Shown piece after piece: positions 7,925 through 58,157 of a stretch of DNA of 64,000 nt. The position numbers and the translations under genes are program-made. Below the pieces are notes generated by a model that made no database searches, was not told where the DNA came from, and saw nothing but the letters and a program-made list of their open reading frames with translations. Source of the stretch: Ostreococcus lucimarinus (lineage: Eukaryota); NCBI GenBank assembly GCA_000092065.1, contig CP000583.1, one strand, 5' to 3'. Numbering within the stretch: the first letter of the stretch is position 1; each line of letters starts with the position of its first letter.

Positions 7925-8329
7925 CTGTCGTCGTAAAGATCCGCGTTCCCATCGTTCGTCAGTCGCCGCGCGTCCTCGCCGCCGTCTCCCGCCGCGCCGT
8001 CGCCGCGCCGCGCGCGCGTCGTCCCGCCGCCCCGATCGTCTCGCGCCCCATCGCGTCGCGTCTCTCGCCCCCGTCGACGCATCGCTCGCGCGCGCGCACC
8101 GTGGACATGGCGGACATGATCGAGTTCGAGTGTCTTCGCGCGCGTCGCTCGTGCGAGGCGCGGTGTGCGTCGCGCGCGCTCGCGTCGCGCGTCGCCGGCG
8201 AGTGGATAAGATCATTCGGTCCGTGTGTCGATTCGTGTCGATTCGTCTCACGTATGGGCAAACAGTGTACATATCGACGGCAGACGCGCCGACGCCGACG
8301 ACGACGCGCGCACACGGCGACGCGCGACG

Positions 8330-14168: not shown

Positions 14169-17100
14169 CTAATTTTGTTTCGCGTTGGCGTTCACGAACG
14201 GCGAGAGCGCGCTCGAAAGCCAACGCGCGGCGTCTTCGTCGGCGCATCGCACGACGATCGACGTCGGCGTCGCCGCGTCTTCGCCGCGGAAAGTCTCATC
14301 GACGTCGTGGAATGATTGATCCTGTTCTCGATGCATCCACCCGAACGCGAATCCATACGCTCGAGCGAACACGCTTTGCGTCTGTGCGAGGGACACGCGC
14401 GTCGATCGCTCCGCTCTCGCGGCGTACACGGAGACGCGATTCCCGTCGCGAAGGACGCCGGAGATGTCCACAAATCTCACGCTCGAGCGCACGTACGGCG
14501 CGTTGACGTCCGATCGATGAACGACGAGCAGTTTCCCACCCGTCAAAACACACATATCGTGCGACGGCCACATCAACGAAGCGGTGGCGACGAATCGTTC
14601 TCGTTTTTCGCTCGAAGCGAGTTTCGCGAGCGTCTCCCTGCCGATGGCCTCTATGAGATGGTACGGCCGTATGGGGTCCATGTATGACGTGGGAAGCGGG
14701 CGACGCGGGCGCATGTACTCCCCTTCGAACGTTTTCGCCGCCGTGAAAAGTCGAAGTCGCCTCGCGCTGAGCTCGGCGCCATCCAGAGCGGCGGCTAAAA
14801 CGCGCGTCAACGCGCTCATCAAGCCGATGACGGAGCCTTCAACCAACCCTCTCACGCCGGCCAGTTCCAGGCCATGCAGTGGTCCATCGATGACATCGAA
14901 GACGACGCGACCGACAGTGTCAAATATGCGCGCCACAAACGTCACCGTCGCCTGCTTCTCGAGATCTTCGACCGTGCCGAGTCTTCTCGGTCGAAGCGAA
15001 AATCGCCGACTGGCTTGGGCGACTTCCAGCGCTTCGAGCCAACCATCGACGACGTCACGCGCTTGCGATAGCGCCGTCTCTCCAGAATGCGCAAACGCAG
15101 CTGTGAGTGCCATTATTACTCGTGGCAACGCGGTTGTCGCCGAACCTTGATGCATCTCATCGAAAGCTTCGATGATTTCATCCCAAAGCCGGCGCGGATC
15201 GCCGAGTAAGGAGTTATGCGCCCAAAGAGAACCGGCGACGATGACGGCTTCCCTAGCGAAATGACGCGCGGCCATCATGCTGACATCTGCCGCCATGAGT
15301 GACGGCTGGTTCATGTGAAAGCCTCGCAGTCGCAAATTCGCGCGATCAACGCCGGCCAACGCTCGTACGGCGACCGGTAATCCGGGTAAACGAGAAAACG
15401 ACAGGACGAGCTCGACATCGTTTATGATGAGTTCTTGTAAGTATACGGACGTAAGCGCGCCCACAGTTTCGCCTTCCAAGCTGCGCTTACGTGCACCGTT
15501 CGCTTTTATCGTCGGTTTCGCAGGAGGCAAGAGCAACTCTGCGTGACGGACGCACGGCGCGATGGCGCGCGGCACGGATTCAATCAATTCATCGTGTAAA
15601 TCGACGAATGCTGGCGCCAAATCAACCTTCAACGAACGTATGACGGGTAAACCATTCAACTTCTGCACCCGTCCGTGCACCTGCAACTCGAGTGCCTCTC
15701 GGGCGCTTTGATGCCGCTCGGGTATGGCTAACACGATTGGTCGTTTCGCTTTGCTGCTTGTGTGATCGACTCGTGCGCTGTGCACGCGGACGGCGCTCTT
15801 GAACTCGGAACCGTCCGCGAGCACCTTCACCGTAATACCACTCACGCGTCCGTACAGCAACTCTTCGTGTCCATGGATCGCACTCACACCAATCCAACCA
15901 CACTTGAACGACACGTTGACGGGGGCTCCGGGGCGTTGGGGCGTCTTCGTCGATAGTCGCGGGCGCTCGGGCGTATCTGCGACGCGACTGCTCAGCGCGT
16001 CTTCAATGATGACAGAGCACATCGGTCCCTCTCTCGTTACCATCACGCGCAAGCACCGCTTGTCTGTCGTCACCACGCTATACGACAGAGTGCGAGTGAT
16101 GTCAAGCGAAATCGGTTCGCCCAACGAAAGATCGCCGTACCCAATGACGAGCGCGCGAGGAAGAGACGAGTCTTCAATCAGTCGCTCTTCGCTCTCCTTG
16201 GGCGCGAGCGTCGCGCGCGCATCATCGGCACCGAGCTGGTGATACCAGATTGACGCGTTCGAGTGGTTCTCGATGGAATGCATTCCGAGCGCGCCGTCGA
16301 TCTCAGTCGGCCGCGCGATGCGAATGTCAAACGTTCCGTCGTCGTTTTCTAGAATCGAGACCGTGATAGTTTCCGTGTGCAACGTACTATCTCCGCCGAG
16401 GTGACGCATCTTCAGTATAGAAGCAGTATGCTCAGGCACATGCACTGGCTTAGACCATTCGAAAACTCCCTTCTCCGGTCTGAACATGATCACTTTGGGC
16501 ACCTTGGAGCGCATGTCAAACCAACGCAGCGGCGTCGCCGAGCGGGGCTGCAACAAATCCACGCTCTCCGTGCCGCCGTGTCGGATCCAAACGGCTTCGT
16601 CTAGCGTACTTTTGATGAGAAACTTTGGTCGTATCATGATCTTTGCCGTCTTGCACAATTTATCGGTCGAAACCATGGAAGCAGTCACGACGAATACATG
16701 CTCGCAAACATCTGAGCCGGCGTCTGAGGGTAGCCTGATTTCAATCGGCAGACCCGTCGGATCGATCCTAAAAGGGCGACTCCACGCGCTTGAAGACTTG
16801 AGCCGAATACGAATCCGTGGACGCCGTTTGATTGACTTGCGCCAATGCGCTGAACTACCGAGAACGGTCGCGCGTTGATCCAGTGAATCCTCGTCGTCGA
16901 CGCCGTAGTCCACGCCGTGGTCCGTCGATACCGTCTGGCGTCCGGGCGTTGATGGCGTGAGAAGCGTGACCGAATCGGCATTCAATCGCAACGACGACTG
17001 TCGCATCAACAACGGGCTTGTTTGTGACAACACATTCGTCGAAGAACTCATACGTCGAAGAGACGGCAAAGCTTGATTCTGCGCAAGTCGAGCGAAAGGA

Positions 17101-20100
17101 GAAGCCGGCGCCGGGGGAGTCTCAAAGTTCTCAGCGTCTTCTATGAAGAGACGGTTCGGAAGCGGTGAGTTCGTTCCTTGGCGTTCTGCATCGGGGTTTG
17201 ACTCGAAAACTTCGATTTCACTCTGCACAGACTCCTCCATCTCAGTGCCATAGAGCATGTCTTCGAGCACGATGGCGCAGGATGTTGAATTCAGCACGAC
17301 GAGTGGCGCGGCGCAGTACAAGGTCCGTGACTGCGTCGCTTCATCGATGTAAAACGTAAAGCGCAAGGAAACGGCTTGTGAAGACGATTTGTCACCTCCG
17401 TCGTGAATCCTTTTCGTATCTCGATCAACATGGTAAATCTCACCGTTTGCCTGACACTTGGCGTTTTTCAAAGCCATCGTGTATTCCGGCACGACGAGCT
17501 CTTCGCACGGCGCATATCCAACGATTTGTGCAGATACCGAAGCAGACCAAGTGGGGTGAGAGGCTGTGAATAAAGTCGACTCACCCGGATTCACCACATG
17601 TGACTCTATGCGCGCATCATGGCCAAATGCATTCCTAGCGCGGCAAGTGACCACCATCTGCAGCGGTAGCGTGTTGACAAATTTCAGCGGCGCGCTCAGC
17701 GCCAGCTGCACGCGTTTGAGTGTCTCGTCGCGAGTCACCGTGAACGCACACGTGTACGGATCAGACGAAGCAATACTATGTTCTTTCGTCACCGAACAAA
17801 GCGATGCCTCGATAGCATCTTCTTTCGCGACCAAATCAGAAAACGCGACAAAGGTACTCCAATTGTGACGACGTCGCCAGAACGCGTCCCCAAAGGGTGA
17901 GCGTGGAGTGGCGTTGGTTTTCGAACGATGGAGCGGGCTGAGGAAAGGTGACCCAGCGGAAGCTTCAGAATCATCCACCTCATCCACGGAGATTTCTCCA
18001 AAATCTTCATCCGGCGACACCACGCGCCATTGCACGTTTTTAGCTAAGCGCAGGGGTATCGGAAGCCACACACTTTCGCCGGGAAGTATCGGGCCGAAAA
18101 TCGTCGCCGGCAGCGTCGCACTTTGCTGAAAGCACATCACGATCGGGGCGTTCGTGCCATTCAAAATTGCGACGTCCGAACGAAGCAATAGTTCATATCG
18201 ATTCACCTTGTTCGAGCAAGGGCCGATCTCCGCGATGACACGCGCGCAGGAACCGTCCACCATCTGTGCTTCGTATTCCAGCAAGCTCGTCTCCTCGCCA
18301 ATGGTGTCGAGAGAAATTGCCTCGTCTATGTCGACCTGGATGTCTTCAAATTCGAGCGACACGTGAGGAACGCGTTCTTGCGTCGATTCCGATCGATGGC
18401 GCACGCTCGCGCCGTCATCTTCATCGTCATCATTGATCGGCGATGCCCAGTACGAGGCCCCTCGCTCTATGACGCGGTTGGTTTTGCACGCACGATTTTC
18501 CTCGCGCCGCTCAAAGTGCATAACGTTTGTGTCACCCGCGATAGTTTTACCCGCCCCGGCGGACGTGATTTCGCCACCACGAACTAACGTGAGCGCATAA
18601 GCGACGTTGAATCCAGTGGCGTTCGTCATCTGATAAGTGCAAGGTCCAAAAGTCGTCGACTGTTCGAGATCCGCGATGGGCGCTTGCGCCGCTTGCGCGA
18701 TGATTTGCGTCTTGAGAAGCGCTTCGACGACACTATGCGACATTGTTATTTCGATCCCAGCCGCAACGTTGATGTTGACACTCTCAAATAGAAACTCTGG
18801 CGTGAGCTTGATTGACGTCGAAACGCGCATGGGTTCAAGAATGGGTTCCCAAGCCGCTTTCACTGGATGCAAGTAGTCCATCTCTACATCCATCGATGCG
18901 CTTCCATCCACGCCAGAGCTCGAGCTCTTAACATCAACACGCGCGTCCGTCATCATGACTTGCAAAACTGGCACAACGATGTGGACCTGTGCGTGTTCCA
19001 GGCACGCACTCATGGACTCTACGTTGATGGAAAGATCGAACTCGTGTGGGCTTGAACTCGAGGGCAATTGATCATACGCCTCTATGGCGTTCAAAGTTGC
19101 CGGTTGCGCGAGGATCAGCGCCGAAACTTCTTGTATCAAGTGTAAAGAAACTTCGTTTGCGCGTGCGCGCATCTCATGTACAGTAACGTCCATTTTCGGC
19201 ACGACTTTGCGCGCAAAGTGTTCAGGAGATGTGGGCGGCAAAGTCATTCTACTCGAAAGTCCAATAACTTCGGCGAGCGTAAACATGATTGATGAACCTT
19301 CGAGATCATCTTCATCCTTGCAGTATCCTGTCTCAAGCGTGAACTCATCCAGTGTGAACGTCGCATTGACGCAAGATCCCGCAGTGAACTCATTCAAAGT
19401 ACCCGATTGCCGAGTCTTCAAACGTACGATACGCAGCGGCGCATGGCGCTCGCTCTCTGAACGCCAAGGTAGTTGTACTGTCCAAGTTTCCGTGCGAAAG
19501 TTCGCAGACACGAGAGTTAAAGACAAAGGTGATATCGATGGTGCAGATGTCGTTGTCGACGCGGTCAACACAGGCATTGCCTGTCTCACGCCATGCAAGA
19601 CACTCGTTCCCGCAATGATGTACGGCGCGTTGAACTCGACATCGCCTTTCCCAATGAGCAACTCGGACTTTACTGAGCCTTGGGCGTACATGGCATCCAT
19701 TTTGACAGCCGCACCGGACTCACTCGATATATGAAGCAACGTCGTCGGGTGTTCGATACTTTTGCGTGTGCAAACTTGCAGATCAATAGAGTCCACTCGT
19801 AATTCAGCGAGATGGCCGTCTTCTCGCGGACTCGCGCGCCCCGTCACGTCGAAAAACGTCAACGAAATTTCATCCGCTTCTCTAGCGCTCAACCTGATTC
19901 GTTTCACATTCACGTCGACGGAAGGAATTGAAAACACTTTGGCGTCAGTGATCCCAGGAGAAGCTATAGGTGAACTCTTAGTCAGAGAGGGCATCTTTGG
20001 AATCGATTCCGAGACGACGACCAGTCGCCGCACGTCTGTGGGGGTAATTTCAGCGCCAATACTCCCCACCTGCACCTTCGCCGCGTTTGAGGCGCTCCCG

Positions 20101-23100
20101 AAAGAATGAGTAAAATGTACATCCTCGACATCGAGTAATGAAGTAGAAAACTCGGCGTTGAGAATAGAGAGTAACATTCTAGGGAGCTCAAGTTCCACGT
20201 GCGAGGCATTGCCTCGAATCTCCATGGCACGCGTCGTGAGCGCAACCGCTTCCTTTTCGCCCGACTCTTCAAAGAGCTTGAACGACATGGGTTCAATGGA
20301 GCCGTGTAAAAATAGTGACAACGAGTCTGCGATATCGAACGTCGCTACACAACTCCACGCCCTGTCGAACTCACCACGGACGGAACGACTCTGAATAGGG
20401 CTCGCGACGTGCAGACGTTCACCAAAGAACTTCTTGACGTCTTTCGTAAGGCGGGCAAACTCTGATAGCGTTTCGAGTACATTTTGCGTAACTCTTACGT
20501 CGATGGCTCCCAATTCGATCGTACCCGCGATTCGTGCGCAGACGTGAGCTTTCAGTATAGAGTCCTTCGGCGAGCAACGCACAATTTCTGTTTGCGCCGA
20601 ATCAGCGTCCATGTGCACGCCAGATACCGTACCTACGCTTGATTTCATCCTCCAATCGTCGCTCGAACCCTTCGTGGCGATACTGATGTCCGTGACCGTG
20701 TAATGCATTCGGCCTGATGCGCTATTCAAATTCAGCGCGATCTTTTCTAAGTTGAATCGAAGCCCAGAATCCACGGCGAAGGGCGTCGAACTCGCAGTTG
20801 TCTGTACAGAGACGTCTGCAAAGGCTTGGACCACGTGAACCACCGCCGCGACGCTTACCGGATCGAAGTTGAGTTCGATCGGTTCCAAGTCTACCATCGT
20901 CACATCGGAATCGAATATTGTCGCATCGTTCACGACAGTAAGTTTCACTCCTTCAGCTATAGCAGCGGAGGCGTTTGCCGCGGTCATCCACGCGCCGTCG
21001 ACGTGTGCGAAACTACGAGTTTGCAAAACAAATTCAGACAACTCTTCCAGGGCGCGCCACGCTTCCTTTGCATCGTAAGCATAATCCATCATCGCTGAAG
21101 CTTCGTCTACCAATCGATCAAACGATCCATCATCGCGTGATCGCGAACCGTTTTCCTGGCAAAAGACAATCTTTTCCGCGCCAAACGCCAACGCAGCCGA
21201 CGTCTCCACATCGATCGATGGCGGTGCAGTTTGAGCGGGTACGACAAGTAAGGGTGAATCGATCTCAACGAGCACAGGTATCGCTTGTATCCCGTCGCCA
21301 AGGAGCTTGATCATCTTCAACCTGCACTCTGGCGAGCGATTGTTCAACCCCAAAGTCGCTCTTCGTAGTGCTTGCCAGTAAGGTCCATCTCTGATACTCG
21401 CGAAACCCGCGAGCACTTTGGCCGTTGACGGTCGAATAGCCATACCGTGTGGCGCCATCTTCACGTGCACGTTTACGAGCACGTCCAGCGTCGCGCACGC
21501 ACTCGGATTCAACTTGATCGTAACCGCTCGCTCGCCATCAGTTTCTCGAGACCAAATCATATCCTCAGCAACACCCGAGCTCGAGTCCTCAGCGTGCACG
21601 CGATCGACGTGTATCTGCGTCTCACTGACGACACCTTCGTCATCGGCGAAGAGAGCACCATGCGCCAGTGATATGTTATTCGCCGTGAACCGTAATCGAT
21701 TCTCCGCCGCGTCTCGAATCGTCATCGAGACGCCGGGAATCTCCACAGATACTTCTGGCTCAAAGTCACCGACTGATTCTGATGCCGACGCATATTTTGA
21801 TGACACGTTGACATAGTTGTAAGCTTTGGAGATGTAACTCGTGCTCTTGGCATAGAGATAGCTCGTGAGACTCGTTGACGTCTGTTTTGACTCTGGCATT
21901 CTTCTTATCTGCTCCGCGGTCTCCTCCGCATCATCGCCGCTGGTGTCGAATATATCCGCGGCGCTGTATGACGAGTGATACGAAGGAAACATGCTATCCA
22001 TCATATCATCTTCTGTCTCTTGAAGACTCGCCACCTTGCGCTCGACAAGCGATGTGATGAGCTCAACGTCATCCGCCGTGAGCCTCGTCTCAAACTTTTG
22101 TAAATGTTCAGGCATCGTGATTCTCTGCCCACGTTTGCGCTCGACGCACACCTCGACGTACGCCTCGAGCTGTGAGCGCCCATGTCTAAGTCTATCTAGC
22201 ATTCGAGCGCGATGGTGCTCTCCGCGCGGCACCGTCGCCCTGACGGCGTATCTCCACCAATCGACGGGATTCTTCGTCTTTGGTCTACGTTCGCCGTGCG
22301 CTCTTCTCTTCGTCCACATATCAATCTCATCGCGCACCAAAAGCAACATCTGCGCCTGCGAAGCGCTAATATTCGTTTCTAGAACGTCTCGAACGTCTAT
22401 CTTCGCGACGTATTTCGATGCCTTCGGGCGAAGGAATCTCGCGCGCCGCGCGCGTTTGCGCAAGTGCACGTCCATTCGCACGCGACCGTTCGGTCCCACG
22501 ACATCGTGCTGCCCCGACGTCTCACCATCATCCACGATGAGCGACAGTCCTGTTATTTCGACGCGCTTCATCGCGTCTCCGCTGAACGACGCGTCGCCCG
22601 CGTCGTCGTCGTGCTCGGAAGTCTTTGTTTTCTTTCGCTCTGGCTCGCCGTCGTTCGCGTCCTCGTCATCCTCCGCTGACCGAGCGCTCGACGTCTTCCC
22701 TACGCTCTTCATCGTAAACCGCTCGATGCTTCCTCGCAATCGCCCGACGTCACCCTCCCGCCCCGAACCCGTCGCCTTCGTCGCGTACGTCGCGCTCGCG
22801 CGTCGACACTCCACCGATAAACGCTCAAACGCCGCCGCGAACCACGCGTTGGACCACGCCGACCCTTTCACCATCTCTCGCGCGTGCGTCTCCATCGCGC
22901 TCGCGATGTGTTCCATCGCTTTCTCCCTCGCGTCCCGTCGTTCGCGCAGCGCATCCGAGTCGACCCCATCACCCGAGTCGTCTTCGTCTTCTTCGTCGTC
23001 GTTCGGCGCCTCCGCCTCGACGTCGACGCCTTCCACGCGCACCCGAAGCGTCTCCTCTCGCTTCCCGAACACCGCGTAGTGCACGTCGATCGTCTCGATG

Positions 23101-23288
23101 CGCACTCGCGTGAGTTTTATCCCCAGGTTCAGCTCGCGATTGAGCGCGTCGCAGTTCACGGACACGTTTCGCAGCGAAAGTTTTCGTCGCAGCAGGGCGA
23201 TGCGCAGGGTGTCGGAATTGACGCCGTCGAGGTAGCGATTGAGCGCGCGCGCGAGCAAAGGCGCGAGTATGGTGTGCGCGCCGATCAT
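14169..23288 (-). CDS. VPS13: VPS13-family bridge-like lipid-transfer protein (3039 aa, single exon)
   Basis: ATG verified at 23286-23288. N-terminal chorein-N-like 'MIGAHTILAPLLARALNRYLDGVNSDTLRIALLRRKLSLRNVSVNCDALNREL'. Length and C-terminal region are consistent with VPS13; ORF is uninterrupted. Confidence 0.85.
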   Translation of the reverse strand: MIGAHTILAPLLARALNRYLDGVNSDTLRIALLRRKLSLRNVSVNCDALNRELNLGIKLTRVRIETIDVHYAVFGKREETLRVRVEGVDVEAEAPNDDEEDEDDSGDGVDSDALRERRDAREKAMEHIASAMETHAREMVKGSAWSNAWFAAAFERLSVECRRASATYATKATGSGREGDVGRLRGSIERFTMKSVGKTSSARSAEDDEDANDGEPERKKTKTSEHDDDAGDASFSGDAMKRVEITGLSLIVDDGETSGQHDVVGPNGRVRMDVHLRKRARRARFLRPKASKYVAKIDVRDVLETNISASQAQMLLLVRDEIDMWTKRRAHGERRPKTKNPVDWWRYAVRATVPRGEHHRARMLDRLRHGRSQLEAYVEVCVERKRGQRITMPEHLQKFETRLTADDVELITSLVERKVASLQETEDDMMDSMFPSYHSSYSAADIFDTSGDDAEETAEQIRRMPESKQTSTSLTSYLYAKSTSYISKAYNYVNVSSKYASASESVGDFEPEVSVEIPGVSMTIRDAAENRLRFTANNISLAHGALFADDEGVVSETQIHVDRVHAEDSSSGVAEDMIWSRETDGERAVTIKLNPSACATLDVLVNVHVKMAPHGMAIRPSTAKVLAGFASIRDGPYWQALRRATLGLNNRSPECRLKMIKLLGDGIQAIPVLVEIDSPLLVVPAQTAPPSIDVETSAALAFGAEKIVFCQENGSRSRDDGSFDRLVDEASAMMDYAYDAKEAWRALEELSEFVLQTRSFAHVDGAWMTAANASAAIAEGVKLTVVNDATIFDSDVTMVDLEPIELNFDPVSVAAVVHVVQAFADVSVQTTASSTPFAVDSGLRFNLEKIALNLNSASGRMHYTVTDISIATKGSSDDWRMKSSVGTVSGVHMDADSAQTEIVRCSPKDSILKAHVCARIAGTIELGAIDVRVTQNVLETLSEFARLTKDVKKFFGERLHVASPIQSRSVRGEFDRAWSCVATFDIADSLSLFLHGSIEPMSFKLFEESGEKEAVALTTRAMEIRGNASHVELELPRMLLSILNAEFSTSLLDVEDVHFTHSFGSASNAAKVQVGSIGAEITPTDVRRLVVVSESIPKMPSLTKSSPIASPGITDAKVFSIPSVDVNVKRIRLSAREADEISLTFFDVTGRASPREDGHLAELRVDSIDLQVCTRKSIEHPTTLLHISSESGAAVKMDAMYAQGSVKSELLIGKGDVEFNAPYIIAGTSVLHGVRQAMPVLTASTTTSAPSISPLSLTLVSANFRTETWTVQLPWRSESERHAPLRIVRLKTRQSGTLNEFTAGSCVNATFTLDEFTLETGYCKDEDDLEGSSIMFTLAEVIGLSSRMTLPPTSPEHFARKVVPKMDVTVHEMRARANEVSLHLIQEVSALILAQPATLNAIEAYDQLPSSSSPHEFDLSINVESMSACLEHAQVHIVVPVLQVMMTDARVDVKSSSSGVDGSASMDVEMDYLHPVKAAWEPILEPMRVSTSIKLTPEFLFESVNINVAAGIEITMSHSVVEALLKTQIIAQAAQAPIADLEQSTTFGPCTYQMTNATGFNVAYALTLVRGGEITSAGAGKTIAGDTNVMHFERREENRACKTNRVIERGASYWASPINDDDEDDGASVRHRSESTQERVPHVSLEFEDIQVDIDEAISLDTIGEETSLLEYEAQMVDGSCARVIAEIGPCSNKVNRYELLLRSDVAILNGTNAPIVMCFQQSATLPATIFGPILPGESVWLPIPLRLAKNVQWRVVSPDEDFGEISVDEVDDSEASAGSPFLSPLHRSKTNATPRSPFGDAFWRRRHNWSTFVAFSDLVAKEDAIEASLCSVTKEHSIASSDPYTCAFTVTRDETLKRVQLALSAPLKFVNTLPLQMVVTCRARNAFGHDARIESHVVNPGESTLFTASHPTWSASVSAQIVGYAPCEELVVPEYTMALKNAKCQANGEIYHVDRDTKRIHDGGDKSSSQAVSLRFTFYIDEATQSRTLYCAAPLVVLNSTSCAIVLEDMLYGTEMEESVQSEIEVFESNPDAERQGTNSPLPNRLFIEDAENFETPPAPASPFARLAQNQALPSLRRMSSSTNVLSQTSPLLMRQSSLRLNADSVTLLTPSTPGRQTVSTDHGVDYGVDDEDSLDQRATVLGSSAHWRKSIKRRPRIRIRLKSSSAWSRPFRIDPTGLPIEIRLPSDAGSDVCEHVFVVTASMVSTDKLCKTAKIMIRPKFLIKSTLDEAVWIRHGGTESVDLLQPRSATPLRWFDMRSKVPKVIMFRPEKGVFEWSKPVHVPEHTASILKMRHLGGDSTLHTETITVSILENDDGTFDIRIARPTEIDGALGMHSIENHSNASIWYHQLGADDARATLAPKESEERLIEDSSLPRALVIGYGDLSLGEPISLDITRTLSYSVVTTDKRCLRVMVTREGPMCSVIIEDALSSRVADTPERPRLSTKTPQRPGAPVNVSFKCGWIGVSAIHGHEELLYGRVSGITVKVLADGSEFKSAVRVHSARVDHTSSKAKRPIVLAIPERHQSAREALELQVHGRVQKLNGLPVIRSLKVDLAPAFVDLHDELIESVPRAIAPCVRHAELLLPPAKPTIKANGARKRSLEGETVGALTSVYLQELIINDVELVLSFSRLPGLPVAVRALAGVDRANLRLRGFHMNQPSLMAADVSMMAARHFAREAVIVAGSLWAHNSLLGDPRRLWDEIIEAFDEMHQGSATTALPRVIMALTAAFAHSGETALSQARDVVDGWLEALEVAQASRRFSLRPRRLGTVEDLEKQATVTFVARIFDTVGRVVFDVIDGPLHGLELAGVRGLVEGSVIGLMSALTRVLAAALDGAELSARRLRLFTAAKTFEGEYMRPRRPLPTSYMDPIRPYHLIEAIGRETLAKLASSEKRERFVATASLMWPSHDMCVLTGGKLLVVHRSDVNAPYVRSSVRFVDISGVLRDGNRVSVYAARAERSTRVSLAQTQSVFARAYGFAFGWMHREQDQSFHDVDETFRGEDAATPTSIVVRCADEDAARWLSSALSPFVNANAKQN

Positions 23289-34676: not shown

Positions 34677-36272
34677 TCACGTGTGAAGCTCGACCGCGAT
34701 CTGCTCCAATGACTTGCCTTTTGTCTCCACGACGTATGCTTGAGTGAAAAAGAACCCAAACATCGAAAACGCCGCGAAAAACATGTACACGACGCTAGCG
34801 CCGAAGTACTCCACCGCCGGTAAAAATCCCTGTCCAATGCAGAAGTTGAAGATCCAGTGCGCGAGAAAGCACAAAGACATCCCCTTCCCGCGCACGGCCG
34901 GAGCGAAAATCTCCGAAGATAGCAGACCCGGAACTGGACCGGCGCCCATGCCGAAGATGAAGACGTACGAGAGGACGGAAAACAGCGACAGCGCGGGCGC
35001 CATGACCATCGCTGGAAACGCGCCCGCGATGGCCAAACCGACGCAACTTACCGCCATACCGAGGAAAGAGTACATGAGAAGCGGTTTACGACCCGTTTTA
35101 TCGAGTAAACCGGTAGCGATGACGCTGCCTACGATGTTCACCACGCACACCGCGACGGAGGCGAGTACGCCAGATTCGATCCCGGCGCTTTGGAAGATGG
35201 CCGTGCTGAAGTAGATGATGGCGTTGATGCCGGCAAATTGTTGAATGAAGAACAGCATCGGCCCCGTAATCACGGCTCGACGATTCGAGCGCCCTTGCAG
35301 AGTCTCTTGCCACGTCGCCACCTTGGTCGATCCCATGTCGTCGGCGCGCTTCGGCGCCACGGCTCCGAATTGCTTAGACTCCACCGCGTCCGCCTCTTGA
35401 AAGTGCCCTTTGGAGCGCAACCACGACGGACTTTCCGGGATTCCGTTCGCGAGCGTCGCGAGCGCGACCGCGGGAACGGTGGCGAGCCAGAACATCGTGC
35501 GCCACCACGCGGGATCGACGTCGACGCCTTGCAAAGGCAAACCGAGAAACATGGCGACCAAAATCCCAAATCCGATGGACAGTTGCGGCCCCGATCCCAG
35601 CACCCCACGGTGCTCGGGCGGACTCAGTTCGCTCACGTACATGGGCACCAAAATCGACACCAATCCGACGCCCACGCCCACGATCGCGCGTCCGGCGAGC
35701 ATCGTCCGCAGCGTCGTCGCCGCCGCGCACGCCGCGCTTCCCAGCGCCAGCGCGACGCCCGCCAGCGCCAGCGACTTTTTCCGTCCAAATTTATCCGCCG
35801 ACGCCCCCGCGGCGAACGACCCGAACGCCGCGCCCATGAGCATGCTCGACACCACCGCTCCTTTCGCCGCGACGTCTCGCGCGATGCCGATATCGCTCGC
35901 CAGCGCCTCCAGCGCCGGATTCACGACGCCGCAGTGATACCCAAACGAAAACGCCCCGAGTGCGGCGACGGCGACCGGGAACGCCGCGCGCCGCAGCGCC
36001 TGCGACGCGCTCAGCGGTTTCGCGAGCAATCCATCGCCATCGCGCGCGTCCTCGTCGCGCGTCGCGCGCGCGCGCGGCATCGCACCGCGCGTCCCGCGGA
36101 CCGACGCGTTCGCGCGCGCGTCGCTCGAGTTCGCGCGCGGCGCGATGCGCATGCGCGACGCGCGCGCGCGCGCGACGACGGGACGCGAGACGCGCGCGCG
36201 ATGCCGCGATCGGCGCGCGCGCGCGTCGACGCGCGCGCGCGACGACGACGCCGCCGACGACGACGCGCGCAT
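34677..36272 (-). CDS. MFS sugar porter, plastidic glucose transporter (pGlcT)-like
   Basis: ATG at 36270-36272 (later ATGs possible). 12 TM helices, 'GRKKSLAL', 'PESPSWL', 'PVPGLLSSEIFAPAVRGKG' sugar-porter motifs. Arg/Ala/Ser-rich 90-aa N-terminal extension. Confidence 0.75.
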   Translation of the reverse strand: MRASSSAASSSRARVDARARRSRHRARVSRPVVARARASRMRIAPRANSSDARANASVRGTRGAMPRARATRDEDARDGDGLLAKPLSASQALRRAAFPVAVAALGAFSFGYHCGVVNPALEALASDIGIARDVAAKGAVVSSMLMGAAFGSFAAGASADKFGRKKSLALAGVALALGSAACAAATTLRTMLAGRAIVGVGVGLVSILVPMYVSELSPPEHRGVLGSGPQLSIGFGILVAMFLGLPLQGVDVDPAWWRTMFWLATVPAVALATLANGIPESPSWLRSKGHFQEADAVESKQFGAVAPKRADDMGSTKVATWQETLQGRSNRRAVITGPMLFFIQQFAGINAIIYFSTAIFQSAGIESGVLASVAVCVVNIVGSVIATGLLDKTGRKPLLMYSFLGMAVSCVGLAIAGAFPAMVMAPALSLFSVLSYVFIFGMGAGPVPGLLSSEIFAPAVRGKGMSLCFLAHWIFNFCIGQGFLPAVEYFGASVVYMFFAAFSMFGFFFTQAYVVETKGKSLEQIAVELHT

Positions 36273-36315
36273 AGTGCGGATCGACGCTCAAAAGGCGACG
36301 CGCGAAACCGGCGAC

Positions 36316-36917
36316 ATGTGGCGTCGCGTCGCGCGCGACGTCGCGAGACGCGCGTCGACGTCGTGCGCGACGTCGTCGTCCGCGCGCGCGACGGGCGCGA
36401 CGCGGGGCGTGAGCGCGACGGCGACGTCGAGGGCGAAGGCGAAGGCGAAGGCGAAGGCGAAGGGTAAAGGTGCGTCGAGCGCGGACCGACGCGCGAGGAC
36501 GCGCGCGAAGACGCGAGGACGCGCGCGAGGACGCGCGGGATGACGCGCGGGATGACGCGCGCGACGCGCGACTGACGGAGCGACGGCGGTGTCGAACGAC
36601 GCGCAGACGGTGAGAAGGCGCAGACGGCGGCGAGCGGCGGCGGCGGCGCGGCGAGCGACACGAAAGTCGTAGGGTTGAATTACTTGAAAACGGGAAGTGA
36701 TCCGGAACTCGGGAGCGATGATGCGTATCCGGCGTGGTTGTGGACGCTGTCGGAGGCGAAGGAAAGTTTGGGAGGGTACGAGCGGAGGATCGCGGCGTTG
36801 AAGGCGGAGGGCTTGGATTGGCGCGCAGAGTTTTCGGAGGAGGACGCGAAACGGTATCGGAAACTCGAACGGACGCATCGGATCAGGGAAAATAACGCGT
36901 CGCGCGCGAAGAAATAG
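36316..36917 (+). CDS. mitochondrial ribosomal protein mL54 (two-exon model: exon1 36316-36463 or -36469, exon2 36607-36917)
   Basis: The ORF-track ORF 36675-36917 starts on TTG and has no in-frame ATG back to a TGA at 36573. Exon 2 encodes 'DAYPAWLWTL...KRYRKLERTHRIRENNASRAKK', matching mL54 (YPEWLF...[22 protein letters not shown]). Upstream ATG 36316 encodes presequence MWRRVARDVARRASTSCATSSSARATGATRG. Phase-1 donors GTAAAG (36464) or GTGCGT (36470), ACTGAC branch at 36571-36576, acceptor cag at 36604-36606; phases agree. Confidence 0.5.
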
Positions 36918-36963
36918 CAATGTTTTGATTATACCGGTATCGTTTGAGCTCGTCGATGCGTGT

Positions 36964-37668
36964 TCACGCGGCGGCGGCGACGGATTCGGCGGCGGCATCT
37001 TCCACGCGCGCGTCCTTCAACCGCGTGGCGTTTTCTTGAACCATCTTCTCCCACTTCAGTTTGTCGTACTCCTCGGGGCTTAAAAAGTCCGGGTCGGCGT
37101 ACGAGCGCCAACTCCACATGTGACACTCGCAGCAAATCGTCTCTGACTCAAACTTTTTCTTGCCTCGACACCACGTCTGCGAAAAATGATGCTCCTTCGT
37201 GTTCGTGGACCCGCACGACAGGCAGTCGGGGAAGCGTTCGTTCGGTTTCCATCGCGAGATCCATTCGTCTACGGTCATAATTTTCATCCCAGCTCCGACC
37301 GAGGGGTTGATTTCAACGGGGTCGCCTGCGCGCGCAAGCCGGTCAGTCAGCCGTCCCGTCGCGAACGTCGTCGTCGTCGAGGAAGGTCGCGCGCAAGCTT
37401 CTTCATCGAGCGTCGTACCGTTCATGATCTTGCGCCACTCCGTGGCGTGCACGAGTGCCTTCGGATTTGCGTTCACGTCGGTGTAGATGTCCGTCTTCAG
37501 ATCGTCCGCGTACGCGTGCGTCATGTCTTTTTCTTCCTCCTCCTTGGTCGTCGACTTGTCGACATCTTTGGCCCCTCCGGTCGCGCCGGTCGCGTCTTTG
37601 GCCTTGGACGACGCCGCAGCCGACTTCCCGGGCTTCTTCTTACCAGTCTTTTTCGATTTTGGAGGCAT
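36964..37668 (-). CDS. hypothetical Lys-rich / Cys-rich protein
   Basis: ATG verified at 37666-37668 (MPPKSKKTGKKKPGKS...). C-terminal cysteine cluster 'CLSCGSTNTKEHHFSQTWCRGKKKFESETICCECHMWSW' suggests a zinc-binding module; family not recognised. Confidence 0.45.
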   Translation of the reverse strand: MPPKSKKTGKKKPGKSAAASSKAKDATGATGGAKDVDKSTTKEEEEKDMTHAYADDLKTDIYTDVNANPKALVHATEWRKIMNGTTLDEEACARPSSTTTTFATGRLTDRLARAGDPVEINPSVGAGMKIMTVDEWISRWKPNERFPDCLSCGSTNTKEHHFSQTWCRGKKKFESETICCECHMWSWRSYADPDFLSPEEYDKLKWEKMVQENATRLKDARVEDAAAESVAAAA

Positions 37669-37803
37669 CGCGACGAGAGACGCGCGCGCGTGAGTGCGGC
37701 GATCTCGAAATGTCCGCGAGAAAAACGCTCGCACCAGCCGTTTTTCACTTCGCTAATAAAATAAATCAAATCACACAGCTACGACCGAACGAGTCTCACT
37801 CGT

Positions 37804-54359: not shown

Positions 54360-55991
54360 CTAACGCAGCAACGTGGACGCGATGGACTGAATCTCTCGCG
54401 GATTGCCGTTCGTCAGCGCTTTCATCGCCGCGACGGTTTGCTCGTCGACGACGGCTTTGACGATTCCGGCAGCCTTGTACTCGCGAAGGATGGTCGCGAT
54501 TTCATCGGTGTTGAATCGCGGCGTCTCCACTGTAACGACGGTCGAGGACCCCAGTTCGTCCGGCAGCGACTGTTCGGTGTTCGATTTGGAAACACCGACG
54601 GAGTGAGACGCCGCCGTGACGGCGACGTGCCTCGCGTCTTCGTCGCACGCCGAGTCCACGGTTTCGATTACCGCGCGCGCCAAACGCAGACTTTTCGCGG
54701 GAATATTCTTTCTAGACCTCGGTCCGGTGACCTCATGCATGTCGGACGGCCCGAATAGCGCATTGTACTGATCGACGACGAACATGACTTTCCCGTCGCC
54801 GTTCTTCGCGAGCGCTCTCAGCTCATTCAACACCACGAGCGCGCAGTCGACAGCTATTTCCGGATCGGTCGAACCCGCTTTTGCGTAGTCGAATAAGTTC
54901 ATTTCCGCGCTCGCCTTGGGCTTGGCGTCCGCCTCGGGCGCGTCGGCCGCATCCTTGGATTTTTTTCCGCGGCTCTTCTTCGGCGCGTTTTCATCCTTGA
55001 GCGTCACCCCCTTAACCTTCACGGACTTTAACACGCTCTCGTTCGCCGCGTTGGCGATGTGTTGCAACAGCCGCATCGCGCAATCGGGCGTTTCCCACAG
55101 TCCATCGCAACCTTCCTTCGTACTCTTGCTAAAGTAGCTCAACCTCGTGAGCTCTAAACCATCCGGGACGTACGCGACGACCCACCCATCGGCGCGCGCG
55201 CGCATGACCAACCGCGCCAACGCCACACTCTTACCGCTACCTCTAGATCCCCGAACGTCCACGCGCCTGTGCGAAGTGGTCGCCTCTTGCAGCGCGTCGT
55301 CGCTGGCTCTCGCCATCAAACGTCTCGCCGCCGTCTTCGCCCCGCGCTTTCCATCGCCACGCTCGGCCGCGCCCTTGGTCTGATTCGCAAACGTAAACGC
55401 CGCCGTCAACGCTTTCACGCTGGAGATCTCCGGCAGCAGCGTCGCCACGGCGTCGTCGTCGATGTCGTACACGTTTCCGGCGTTCGCCGCCGCCGACGCG
55501 AACCCTCGCGCCGCGCTCGCGACGTCCCGTCCGGGCGCGATCGCGCGCGCGCCGCGTCCGAGCGCGATCGCGCGCGCGCCGCTCGAGGCCACGCTCGCGC
55601 TCGCGCCGGCGGTATCGCTCGCGGAACGCACGCCGCGCGCGCGAACGAACCCGATCGCGTTCGTCGACGACGCCGGTGACGAGAGCGCGTCGACGCGCGT
55701 CGACGCGTCGGTGATGGAAGAGGCGCGCGCCGACGACGAGGATGACGAAGCGATGAACACGCCGCGACATCGCGAGCTCGCGCGCAACATCGCGGAAGCG
55801 AATCGATCGATCGAGCGCGTCGTTGTGACGTTTCTCGCCCGCGAACTGCGCGGCTTCGCGGCGGGTTCGGCGCGACGCGTGGAGGAGAGAATCGACGCGG
55901 TCGAGGACGTCGTGCGATGAGATGTGCGTGCGATCAATGCGCTACAACGCCTTTTCGCTATCTTCGCCCGGATACGCCTCGACGAATCCAT
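54360..55991 (-). CDS. DAP3: mitochondrial ribosomal protein mS29 (DAP3)
   Basis: ATG verified at 55989-55991. P-loop 'VRGSRGSGKSVALARL', plus 'VVDQYNALFGPSD' and 'LTNGNPREIQSIAS', which I recognise from DAP3/mS29. Presequence-like N-term MDSSRRIRAKIAKRR. Confidence 0.7.
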   Translation of the reverse strand: MDSSRRIRAKIAKRRCSALIARTSHRTTSSTASILSSTRRAEPAAKPRSSRARNVTTTRSIDRFASAMLRASSRCRGVFIASSSSSSARASSITDASTRVDALSSPASSTNAIGFVRARGVRSASDTAGASASVASSGARAIALGRGARAIAPGRDVASAARGFASAAANAGNVYDIDDDAVATLLPEISSVKALTAAFTFANQTKGAAERGDGKRGAKTAARRLMARASDDALQEATTSHRRVDVRGSRGSGKSVALARLVMRARADGWVVAYVPDGLELTRLSYFSKSTKEGCDGLWETPDCAMRLLQHIANAANESVLKSVKVKGVTLKDENAPKKSRGKKSKDAADAPEADAKPKASAEMNLFDYAKAGSTDPEIAVDCALVVLNELRALAKNGDGKVMFVVDQYNALFGPSDMHEVTGPRSRKNIPAKSLRLARAVIETVDSACDEDARHVAVTAASHSVGVSKSNTEQSLPDELGSSTVVTVETPRFNTDEIATILREYKAAGIVKAVVDEQTVAAMKALTNGNPREIQSIASTLLR

Positions 55992-56901
55992 CGAGCGTGC
56001 TCTGCACGCTCGCGCGGACCTCGGGCGACATTCTGTCGTGGTACAAGACGCCGTCTAAATGGTCGTACTCGTGCTGGAACACGCGCGCCTCGAACCCTTC
56101 GAGGGTCATTTTGAATTTTTTACCCTTCAAGTTTTGCGCTTCGATTTGAACGCCGATCGGGCGCTGCGCGCGTGAATCGAGGAAGAGCGAAGCGGTCAGT
56201 CTCGCGCGACGCAAAATCTCCCGACGCCGACGGCGGCGGCGGCGCGTCAGAGTTAGCCTCGCGTATTAGCTCACATTTCTCCGCACGACCCGCACGCGGG
56301 TCTCGGATTAGCGTATATTTATGTTTTGATCGTCATCGGCTCTCTCGTCTCGCGCGTGACGCGACAATCGCGCGCGGCGCCGTCGCTCGATACGCACCTC
56401 GACGTCGGCGTACATCTTCGGAAAGCTCAAGCACCCTTCCTCGAACAAATCCTTCTCCTTGGAAAACTTCACTATTTCCGGGTTACACAACACCACTTCT
56501 CGCCCCTGTCCTGGCTCTCCCGCCTCGTTGTACACCATCATTCGATAATTCACACCCACCTGCGGCGCCGCCAATCCGCAGCCGACGGTTTCGTACATAA
56601 TCTTAAACATCGCCTTGCTCAACCGTTCCAAATTTTTATCGAACGTCTCCACGGGCGCGTTCTTCGCCCGCAGGCACTTCGCCGGGTACTTCGCGATCGC
56701 CAGCGGTTCGCTCCATCGAACGCTCTTCGCGTCCTCGTCGTCGCCCTTCGTCCCCTCGCCCTCGCGACTCAAGTTTTCCACCTCGCCGAACAAGAAACCC
56801 TTCTTCTTCCCGCGCGCGACGACCGCGGCGCCGCGCCGCGTCGTCGTCGTCGTCACCCTCGACGAGCACGACGCCACTTTACACGCGCACCGCGTCATCA
56901 T
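55942..56901 (-). CDS. PDF: peptide deformylase, organellar (two exons: 56398-56901 and 55942-56163)
   Basis: True ATG at 56899-56901; ORF-track start is GTG. Exon 1 encodes 'GCGLAAPQVG' and 'EGCLSFPKMYADVE'. Exon 2 begins 'RPIGVQIEAQNLKGKKF...VFQHEYDHLDGVLY' (HExxH). Joining gives correct spacing vs E. coli PDF (EGCLS-x16-D-x-x-G). Phase 0/0. Confidence 0.75.
56164..56397 (-). other. spliceosomal intron (234 nt) in PDF gene
   Basis: Minus-strand donor GAG|GTGCGT at 56397-56392. Branch ACTGAC at 56200-56195. Polypyrimidine 'ttcgctcttcctcgattcacgcgcgcag' and acceptor CAG at 56166-56164. Confidence 0.6.
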
Positions 56902-57330
56902 GATCGATCGATCGACGCCCCGGCGTCGCGCGCTCGTGTGACGCGCGAACGTCTGATGTCGCGCGGGGTTCGGTTCCACACGGACCTTCTTTTGGTTCGA
57001 CGTGCGAATCCACGGTTCTTGACTCGACGCGAGTCTCAGTATACGAGTCTCCGCCCTAATCAGGCATCCGACGGCGTCCGAGGCCGCGCGCGTCGCGCGA
57101 CGTCGCCGCACTCGACGACGAGCGACGACGAACGATGTTCGCCTCCATCGCCGCCAACGCCTCCGCGGCCGTGCACGCCAAGGTACGCGCGAACGCGCGA
57201 ACGCGCGAACGCGCTCGGCGACGCGACGCGTCGTCTCGAGCGACGCCGCGACGGACGCGCGCCGAGCGTCGCGATGGGGTTTCGACGCGCGCGCGCGATG
57301 GGGACGCGGCGCGCGGGGGATGGGACGCGT

Positions 57331-57350
57331 CGCGCGCGCGCGCGCGCGCG
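57331..57350. repeat. (CG)10 alternating purine-pyrimidine tract
   Basis: 'cgcgcgcgcgcgcgcgcgcg' at 57331-57350, flanked by further CG-rich runs (GAACGCGC x3 at 57189-57212). Lies in the putative uS13 intron / 5' region. Confidence 0.8.
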
Positions 57351-57542
57351 AACGGTCGAGAATAATTTTACGCGCGGTGCGCGCGCGCGCGATGGAGGAT
57401 CGCGCGCGCGCGAGGGCGTCGTCGAGGCGCGCGACGACGTCGGATAAACCCCGAGGGCGGGCGAGGGCGAGGCGACGACGCGCGGCGATGCCGACGACGA
57501 CGAGCGAGGGGGGACGACGAGCGCGCGAACGATGACTGACGG

Positions 57543-58157
57543 ATGAATTGTGTTTTCGACATCACGCAGCGCACGCAATTTTCGGGCGCTTCCGTCAAGC
57601 CCGCGCGGGCGGTGACCATGGTGCGTGTCGCGACGGATGCGCGTGGGGTGAATAGGGTTTCCATCGCCCCGAGCGCGCGGAGTCGAGAACGCGCGAGCGA
57701 GCGAGCGTGGTGCGAACGAAGACTGACGAATGCGCGCGGGATCTTTGACGATGAACAGCCCGTCGCGCAACGACGCGGTGATTTGTGCGTGCGCGCGGCG
57801 CGCGTCGCCGGGGTTGAGATTCCAAACAACAAGAGATGCGAGACGGCGTTGACGTACGTGTACGGCATCGGCGAAACGAGCGCCAAGGCGATCATGGCGG
57901 CGACTGGTTTGGAGAACAAGCGTTTGCGTGAATTCTCTGAGCAGGAACTCACGCAATTGCGCGAAGAGGTGGAGAAGTACCAGATTGAGGGTGAACTCAG
58001 ACGCTTCATTACGATGAACATCAAGCGCTTGAAGGAGATTCAGTGCCACCGGGGTAAGATGCACATTCGCAACTTGCCGGTGCGTGGTCAGCGAACCAAG
58101 ACGAACGCGCGCACGCGCAAGGGTAAGGTTAAGACCGTGGCTGGCAAGAAGAAGTAA
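57543..58157 (+). CDS. bacterial-type ribosomal protein uS13, organellar, nuclear-encoded (alternative two-exon model 57135-57182 + 57759-58157)
   Basis: '[32 protein letters not shown]...[25 protein letters not shown]' is unmistakably uS13. Single-exon ATG 57543 gives a 90-aa presequence. Alternatively ATG 57135 (MFASIAANASAAVHAK) joins via AAG|GTACGC donor (57183), ACTGAC branch 57722-57727 and CAG acceptor 57756-57758, in frame at 57759. Confidence 0.75.

Follow-up and report, generated by a model that had tools for sequence, protein, structure and literature searches.

Proteins of the mL54 family (MRPL54 in animals) are about 150 amino acids long and typically have an N-terminal extension, and the chains of this family with solved structures carry a Lys/Gly-rich stretch ahead of the conserved core and a K-x-NN motif at the C-terminus. 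In the picoalga Ostreococcus lucimarinus, the EST-confirmed introns outside chromosome 2 have a 5′ splice-site consensus, GTGCGTG, that has been called atypical (Irimia & Roy 2008, PMC2483917). ACTGAC is found in 87% of these introns and the longer GACTGACG in 66.5%; their 3′ ends show a preference for CGCAG, and the distance from the branch motif to the AG peaks at about 20–35 nt (PMC2483917). We analyzed a 64,000-nucleotide stretch of contig CP000583.1 of this species (referred to below as the window) and found that its plus strand very probably carries a nuclear gene for mL54 (MRPL54) of O. lucimarinus CCE9901 that consists of two exons separated by an intron at 36470–36606 and encodes a 154-aa precursor.

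In the predicted gene, the coding part of exon 1 spans positions 36316–36469 (plus strand; 154 nt, that is, 51 codons and the first base of codon 52), starts with the ATG at 36316 and yields the peptide MWRRVARDVARRASTSCATSSSARATGATRGVSATATSRAKAKAKAKAKGK. The putative spliceosomal intron (36470–36606, 137 nt, phase 1) is followed by the coding part of exon 2 (36607–36917, 311 nt including the stop codon TAG at 36915–36917), which contains the conserved mL54 body. The frame of exon 2 is open from this TAG back to a TGA at 36573–36575 and contains no Met codon at all, so that a mechanical list of ORFs begins it at the TTG at 36675–36677, with a product of 80 aa; this TTG encodes the Leu of an invariant GLNY motif and is no start codon. 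The frame of exon 1, read without splicing, terminates at 36541–36543 and would give a peptide of 75 aa. The stops in both exon frames are located within the intron, and because exon 2 begins at 36607, the split codon is completed as G+AC (GAC) and the frame is restored.

Two potential donors, GTAAAG (36464–36469) and, 6 nt downstream, GTGCGT (36470–36475), are both in phase 1 relative to the ATG at 36316 and both give open products, of 152 aa (without Gly-Lys) and 154 aa, respectively. The original prediction had put the spliced product at 150 aa, a length that neither donor yields. Its description of the exon-2 frame as closed by the TGA at 36573, devoid of ATG and listed from a TTG agrees with our check of the sequence, and every position that it gave for the exon junction proved exact, including the start codon, the phase of the donors at 36464 and 36470, the ACTGAC motif at 36571–36576 with its branch A (36575) 31 nt before the G of the CAG acceptor (36604–36606), and the reconstituted GAC codon. 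Further ATG codons in the frame of exon 1 are present upstream, at 36145 and 36151, and therefore conservation alone singles out the ATG at 36316 as the start; the 36145/36151 stretch is unconserved and overlaps a divergent transporter gene. Other in-frame GT...AG pairs, such as 36409/36623, were rejected, as their use would delete the conserved AKAK..GK segment. A second CGCAG (36619–36623) was also rejected as the acceptor, as it does not keep the frame when combined with either phase-1 donor and is 45 nt away from the branch motif.

By profile and PDB-chain similarity, both well above chance, the predicted product is mL54. Both the spliced product and exon 2 by itself match the PF08561 profile (Ribosomal_L37, the mL54 family) with 55.5–57.2 bits and E-values of about 1e-15 to 6.4e-15. 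This profile search had been set beforehand as a refutation test of the prediction, and the score of 55.5 bits is to be compared with the curated gathering cutoff of 21 bits. The match covers profile positions 8–87 of 89 and corresponds to residues 68–150 of the 154-aa product (36654–36902), beginning upstream of the TTG at 36675. In a sequence search against the PDB, all matches were chains named mL54. The alignment with chain 9evs_1o (E 4.5e-11) extends over residues 26 to 153 and thus crosses the proposed exon junction together with the Lys/Gly-rich linker; the other matching chains were 6ywe_i (E 4.6e-6) and 9i05_AF (E 6e-3). The Ostreococcus product resembles the solved chains both in its Lys/Gly-rich stretch ahead of the core and in its C-terminal K-x-NN motif, and its size agrees with that of the family. 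It differs from 9evs_1o at a gap of about six residues in that chain, where the product and its Ostreococcus relatives carry 'GLDWRxEFS'. From its sequence, the product shows no visible functional difference from other members of the family, and we infer that the protein is located in the mitoribosome. An AF2 model based on eight sequences has a mean pLDDT of 62 and is confident for the C-terminal helices only; the first 60 residues are disordered except for a short N-terminal helix. With this largely extended or disordered model as the query, the best Foldseek match in the PDB was a human mitoribosome chain, at a non-significant E-value of 5.8.

The 51 residues encoded by exon 1 include 14 basic and 1 acidic residue (net charge +13) and have a high content of Ala, Ser and Thr. 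An Arg-rich N-terminus, of which residues 1–11 form a potentially amphipathic helix with a hydrophobic moment (muH) of 1.01, is followed by an Ala/Lys/Gly-rich linker. This composition fits a mitochondrial presequence and suggests a role in import. Within exon 1, a (GCGAAG)n repeat encoding (AK)n (36432–36437) varies in length among environmental contigs of this species, by an in-frame indel of one 6-nt unit (L002 and L003). The other variants in same-species environmental sequences are one SNP in the intron and one Ser-to-Leu replacement at a position where the relatives also have Leu.

The signals of the putative intron were compared with those of the O. lucimarinus introns outside chromosome 2, with which they agree on all four counts. 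The 5′ splice site, GTGCGTC (36470–36476), matches the consensus at six of seven positions, with C at +7 where the consensus has G; the branch motif is an exact GACTGACG (36570–36577, branch A at 36575); the motif and the AG are separated by 28 nt; and the acceptor is CGCAG (36602–36606). As the 5′ splice-site consensus of the species is GTGCGTG, the donor at 36470 is favored over the GTAAAG at 36464. The 8-mer GACTGACG has only six copies on both strands of the 64-kb window. The strict pattern GTGCG[TC]...ACTGAC...YAG is found at six sites in the window, compared with 2.1 ± 1.3 sites expected from composition-matched random sequence, and a looser scan of the window for splice motifs revealed no enrichment (37 sites vs about 50 expected). 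The combination of splice signals is by itself only moderately unusual, supportive and insufficient alone. Chance alone would give about two strict matches in a window of this size, and the weight of the argument therefore lies in frame compatibility and in conservation among relatives.

An internal calibration is provided by the peptide deformylase gene of the window (55942–57111, minus strand), in which a 234-nt consensus intron with the same signals (56397–56164) lies between the EGCLS and HEYDH motifs. Removal of this intron produces a single contiguous match to PF01327 (179.6 bits), which validates this type of signal within the same window. The deformylase intron is one of the six strict sites, and two more of them fall in the 5′ part of the uS13 gene considered below, which seems to contain introns of the same class. 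Strict matches to GTGCG[TC]...ACTGAC...CAG also occur at 8099–7925 and 44491–44198, both on the minus strand; these are candidate introns, of a kind of which about two would arise in the window by chance.

Five related Ostreococcus-like lineages represented by environmental contigs (L006, L011, L013, L014 and L016) all have a predicted phase-1 intron at the same position, and their proteins are 74–82% identical to the window product over the aligned C-terminal part. The context of the start codon, M-x-R-R-x-A-R, is kept in the five lineages, and the open exon 1 is 133–154 nt long, always 1 mod 3, and ends in ...KGK or ...AGK. The aligned donor is GTGCG in four lineages and GTAATG in one, ACTGAC (ATTGAC in one lineage) is located 23–32 nt before the CAG, and the split codon encodes D or E. 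The lengths of the introns in the window and the five lineages are 137, 138, 127, 160, 108 and 126 nt and are thus not constrained to multiples of three; the intron interiors are divergent among the six lineages, and reading without splicing yields peptides of only 58–81 aa. In L006, the start codon matching the ATG at 36316 is the first one after a stop. The gene order RPE65, sugar transporter (encoded on the other strand), mL54 and peptidase A22B is also conserved in related environmental lineages.

A more distant relative, probably from Micromonas, encodes a collinear protein of 148 aa (P0009) in one uninterrupted ORF; it is 46% identical over its length and has its own presequence and AKAKDK/poly-Gly linker. 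The proposal that the gene consists of two exons is strengthened from several sides: by the architecture found in five lineages, by collinearity with P0009 and with a solved mL54 chain, and by the intron consensus of the species. The intron, common to the six Ostreococcus-like lineages and absent from P0009, is placed exactly between the part encoding the putative import signal and linker and the part encoding the conserved mL54 body. That it represents a lineage-specific gain marking the presequence module, or that its retention is functional, appears unlikely. A 178-aa protein (P0001) was considered as a possible product of a spliced transcript and rejected: upstream of 'CAGCCCGCG' it diverges into unrelated sequence without a presequence and is probably an assembly chimera. 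In region 1–305 of its contig (L009; 1134 bp, 1.4x coverage), a match to exon 2 of a relative gives way to the unrelated sequence.

Splicing at 36470–36606 is predicted from the intron signals and their conservation, and transcript-derived sequence was sought in three ways. A degenerate pattern of the junction, covering both donors in two species, gave two chance matches in JGI metagenome contigs, both within a bacterial transposase-like ORF. Neither the nine spliced proteins predicted for the six lineages nor the 80-aa ORF from the TTG had an exact entry in a collection of 15 billion proteins. When the antisense ORF that would be read from spliced cDNA was used as the query, only proteins of the genomic type were retrieved, at 46–48% query coverage. 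The probable reason for these negative results is a lack of transcript data and not an absence of splicing. The EST study of the species (PMC2367439) contains no mention of the mL54 gene, and the shortest ribosomal protein models are absent from its EST set.

Several other readings of the locus were weighed against a two-exon gene spliced at 36470. The closest of them retains both exons and moves the donor to the GTAAAG at 36464, giving the 152-aa product without Gly-Lys, or has both donors in use as alternative 5′ splice sites that keep the frame. GTAAAG is, like GTGCGT, in phase 1 with an open product and recurs at the corresponding site of L006 and L013, but it departs from the EST-derived consensus of the species and is present in only three of the six aligned lineages, being absent from L011, L014 and L016. 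The aligned downstream donor, by comparison, has the form GTGCG in four of the five relatives (with GTAATG in the fifth), and its use makes exon 1 end in GK in all six products. Splicing at GTAAAG is thus a decidedly improbable choice, so that of the two donors put forward in the original prediction the one at 36470 stands, as both conserved and consensus, and the one at 36464 is disfavored.

The two remaining readings dispense with splicing or with the mL54 gene itself. A gene with a single exon might have its translation initiated at a non-AUG codon (for instance, the TTG at 36675) or might in some other way do without exon 1; the ORF of the upstream ATG would then be a coincidence or a separate uORF. 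The 80-aa ORF is indeed on the mechanical ORF list, many chance ORFs arise in GC-rich sequence, and some mitoribosomal proteins lack cleavable presequences. However, the Pfam match and the invariant residues S68, T70 and G74 precede the TTG, which is itself the Leu codon of the invariant GLNY; exon 1 and the in-phase consensus signals are conserved in all five relatives; and a corresponding N-terminal region is present in the intronless P0009 and in the solved mL54 chains. We regard this possibility as very remote. Still less credence, close to none, is given to the idea that what is truly coding at the locus is the 236-aa ORF on the minus strand (36288–36998), with the plus-strand similarity to mL54 being incidental. 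Although this ORF is the longest at the locus and has been called as a gene on four environmental contigs, it belongs to no Pfam family, it has homologs in near-identical contigs only, and it is a low-complexity Arg/Pro/Ala mirror of the GC-rich coding strand. In L006, moreover, it is broken, and the plus-strand protein of that lineage shows 82% identity.

In the favored reading, exon 1 would supply the AUG, the Arg-rich amphipathic import signal and the Ala/Lys/Gly linker. The 137-nt phase-1 intron would be removed through GTGCGTC, GACTGACG, the 28-nt spacer and CGCAG, and the joining of exon 1 to exon 2 would produce a 154-aa precursor with the conserved mL54 body.

With the start codon and the putative import signal in a short exon 1 behind a 137-nt intron, the gene escapes ORF-based callers or is truncated by them. 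This outcome had been foreseen in the original prediction and is borne out by public annotation, in which an antisense ORF is called on metagenome contigs and the L54 model of a relative starts within the intron. On the environmental contigs L001–L004, which match the window except for a few variants, gene callers of the prokaryotic type annotate the spurious Arg/Pro/Ala-rich antisense ORF of 236 aa (36288–36998 in the window; 2275–2985 in these contigs, minus strand), which covers the entire mL54 gene, and not mL54. The protein cluster of this antisense ORF has 31 member sequences. Apart from an artifact of bisulfite conversion (P0008, described below), no entry in the protein collection is more than 82% identical to the mL54 product.

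The ortholog from a related Ostreococcus-like lineage, recognized by 82% identity and synteny, is a public 108-aa protein named 'large subunit ribosomal protein L54' (P0002; a JGI name, also at NCBI). Its model starts at ATG codons (MMMTTD) inside the intron and consequently does not include the presequence exon; at that locus, a model of two exons and 154 aa is supported. The 108-aa ORF originates from three in-frame ATG codons within the 3′-terminal 16 nt of the intron (L006, 3001–3016). The species of the window has no in-frame ATG at this site, and hence no model was called. A transcript of L006 retaining the intron could, in principle, encode a 108-aa isoform devoid of the presequence.

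Bisulfite-converted sequence covers part of the locus. Apart from 217 C-to-T conversions, the Logan contig SRR847306_6296 (L019) is identical to positions 36549–37500 of the window; SRR847306 is given in the methods of a preprint as a bisulfite-seq run of O. lucimarinus CCE9901 (bioRxiv 10.1101/2025.04.21.649811). The window therefore comes from CCE9901 or from something that cannot be told apart from it in this stretch. All 36 unconverted C residues of the contig are in CpG, and they are clustered at 36628–36661, 36791–36847, 36987–37024, 37166–37198 and 37352–37372, with a spacing of 174–186 bp. The clusters look like nucleosome-linker CpG methylation running across mL54 and its neighbor gene. 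The homolog P0008 derives from this contig and is the protein of the window with R-to-W, P-to-L and A-to-V changes; gene calling on bisulfite-converted contigs places artifactual proteins of this kind into protein databases.

The neighbor is a convergent gene on the minus strand (36964–37734) for a 256-aa protein with a Cys/His-rich C-terminus and no Pfam family. Only 46 nt separate its end from the stop codon of mL54, and the 3′ UTRs of the two genes must therefore overlap or be extremely short; in the relatives, the region of this gene is called as two shorter ORFs. Farther along the plus strand lies a gene for an organellar-type uS13 (57320–58157; PF00416, 98 bits), the N-terminal region of which seems to be split over two mini-exons by introns at 57377–57569 and 57621–57758. 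Both introns have GTGCG donors and GACTGACG 24–26 nt before the terminal AG, and an ATG directly precedes the second donor. The layout, with a targeting peptide behind an intron, is apparently the same as in mL54. As to the rest of the window, an Rfam search of its whole length found no RNA families, and the GC content, about 61% overall, is about 52–55% at 1–2000 and at 16000–22000, the latter segment being situated within a single minus-strand ORF of 3039 aa (14169–23288).

Thus, the observation of a two-exon mL54 gene is real and was correctly read, and it constitutes a routine correction of a gene model, not new biology. What is new is limited to the correct model itself, which public protein collections seem not to contain: for this conserved component of the mitoribosome in a model picoalga, there is seemingly no correct gene model available to the public. 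Correct 5′ exons matter for the prediction of organelle targeting and for tables of the presence and absence of mitoribosomal proteins, and the locus offers a worked example of how the unusually strict splice signals of Ostreococcus can rescue conserved ORFs that have no ATG. Ostreococcus proteomes may systematically lack presequence mini-exons that lie behind consensus introns, as in mL54 and, apparently, in uS13 (57.3–58.2 kb). If this is true, inventories of organelle-targeted proteins would be biased.
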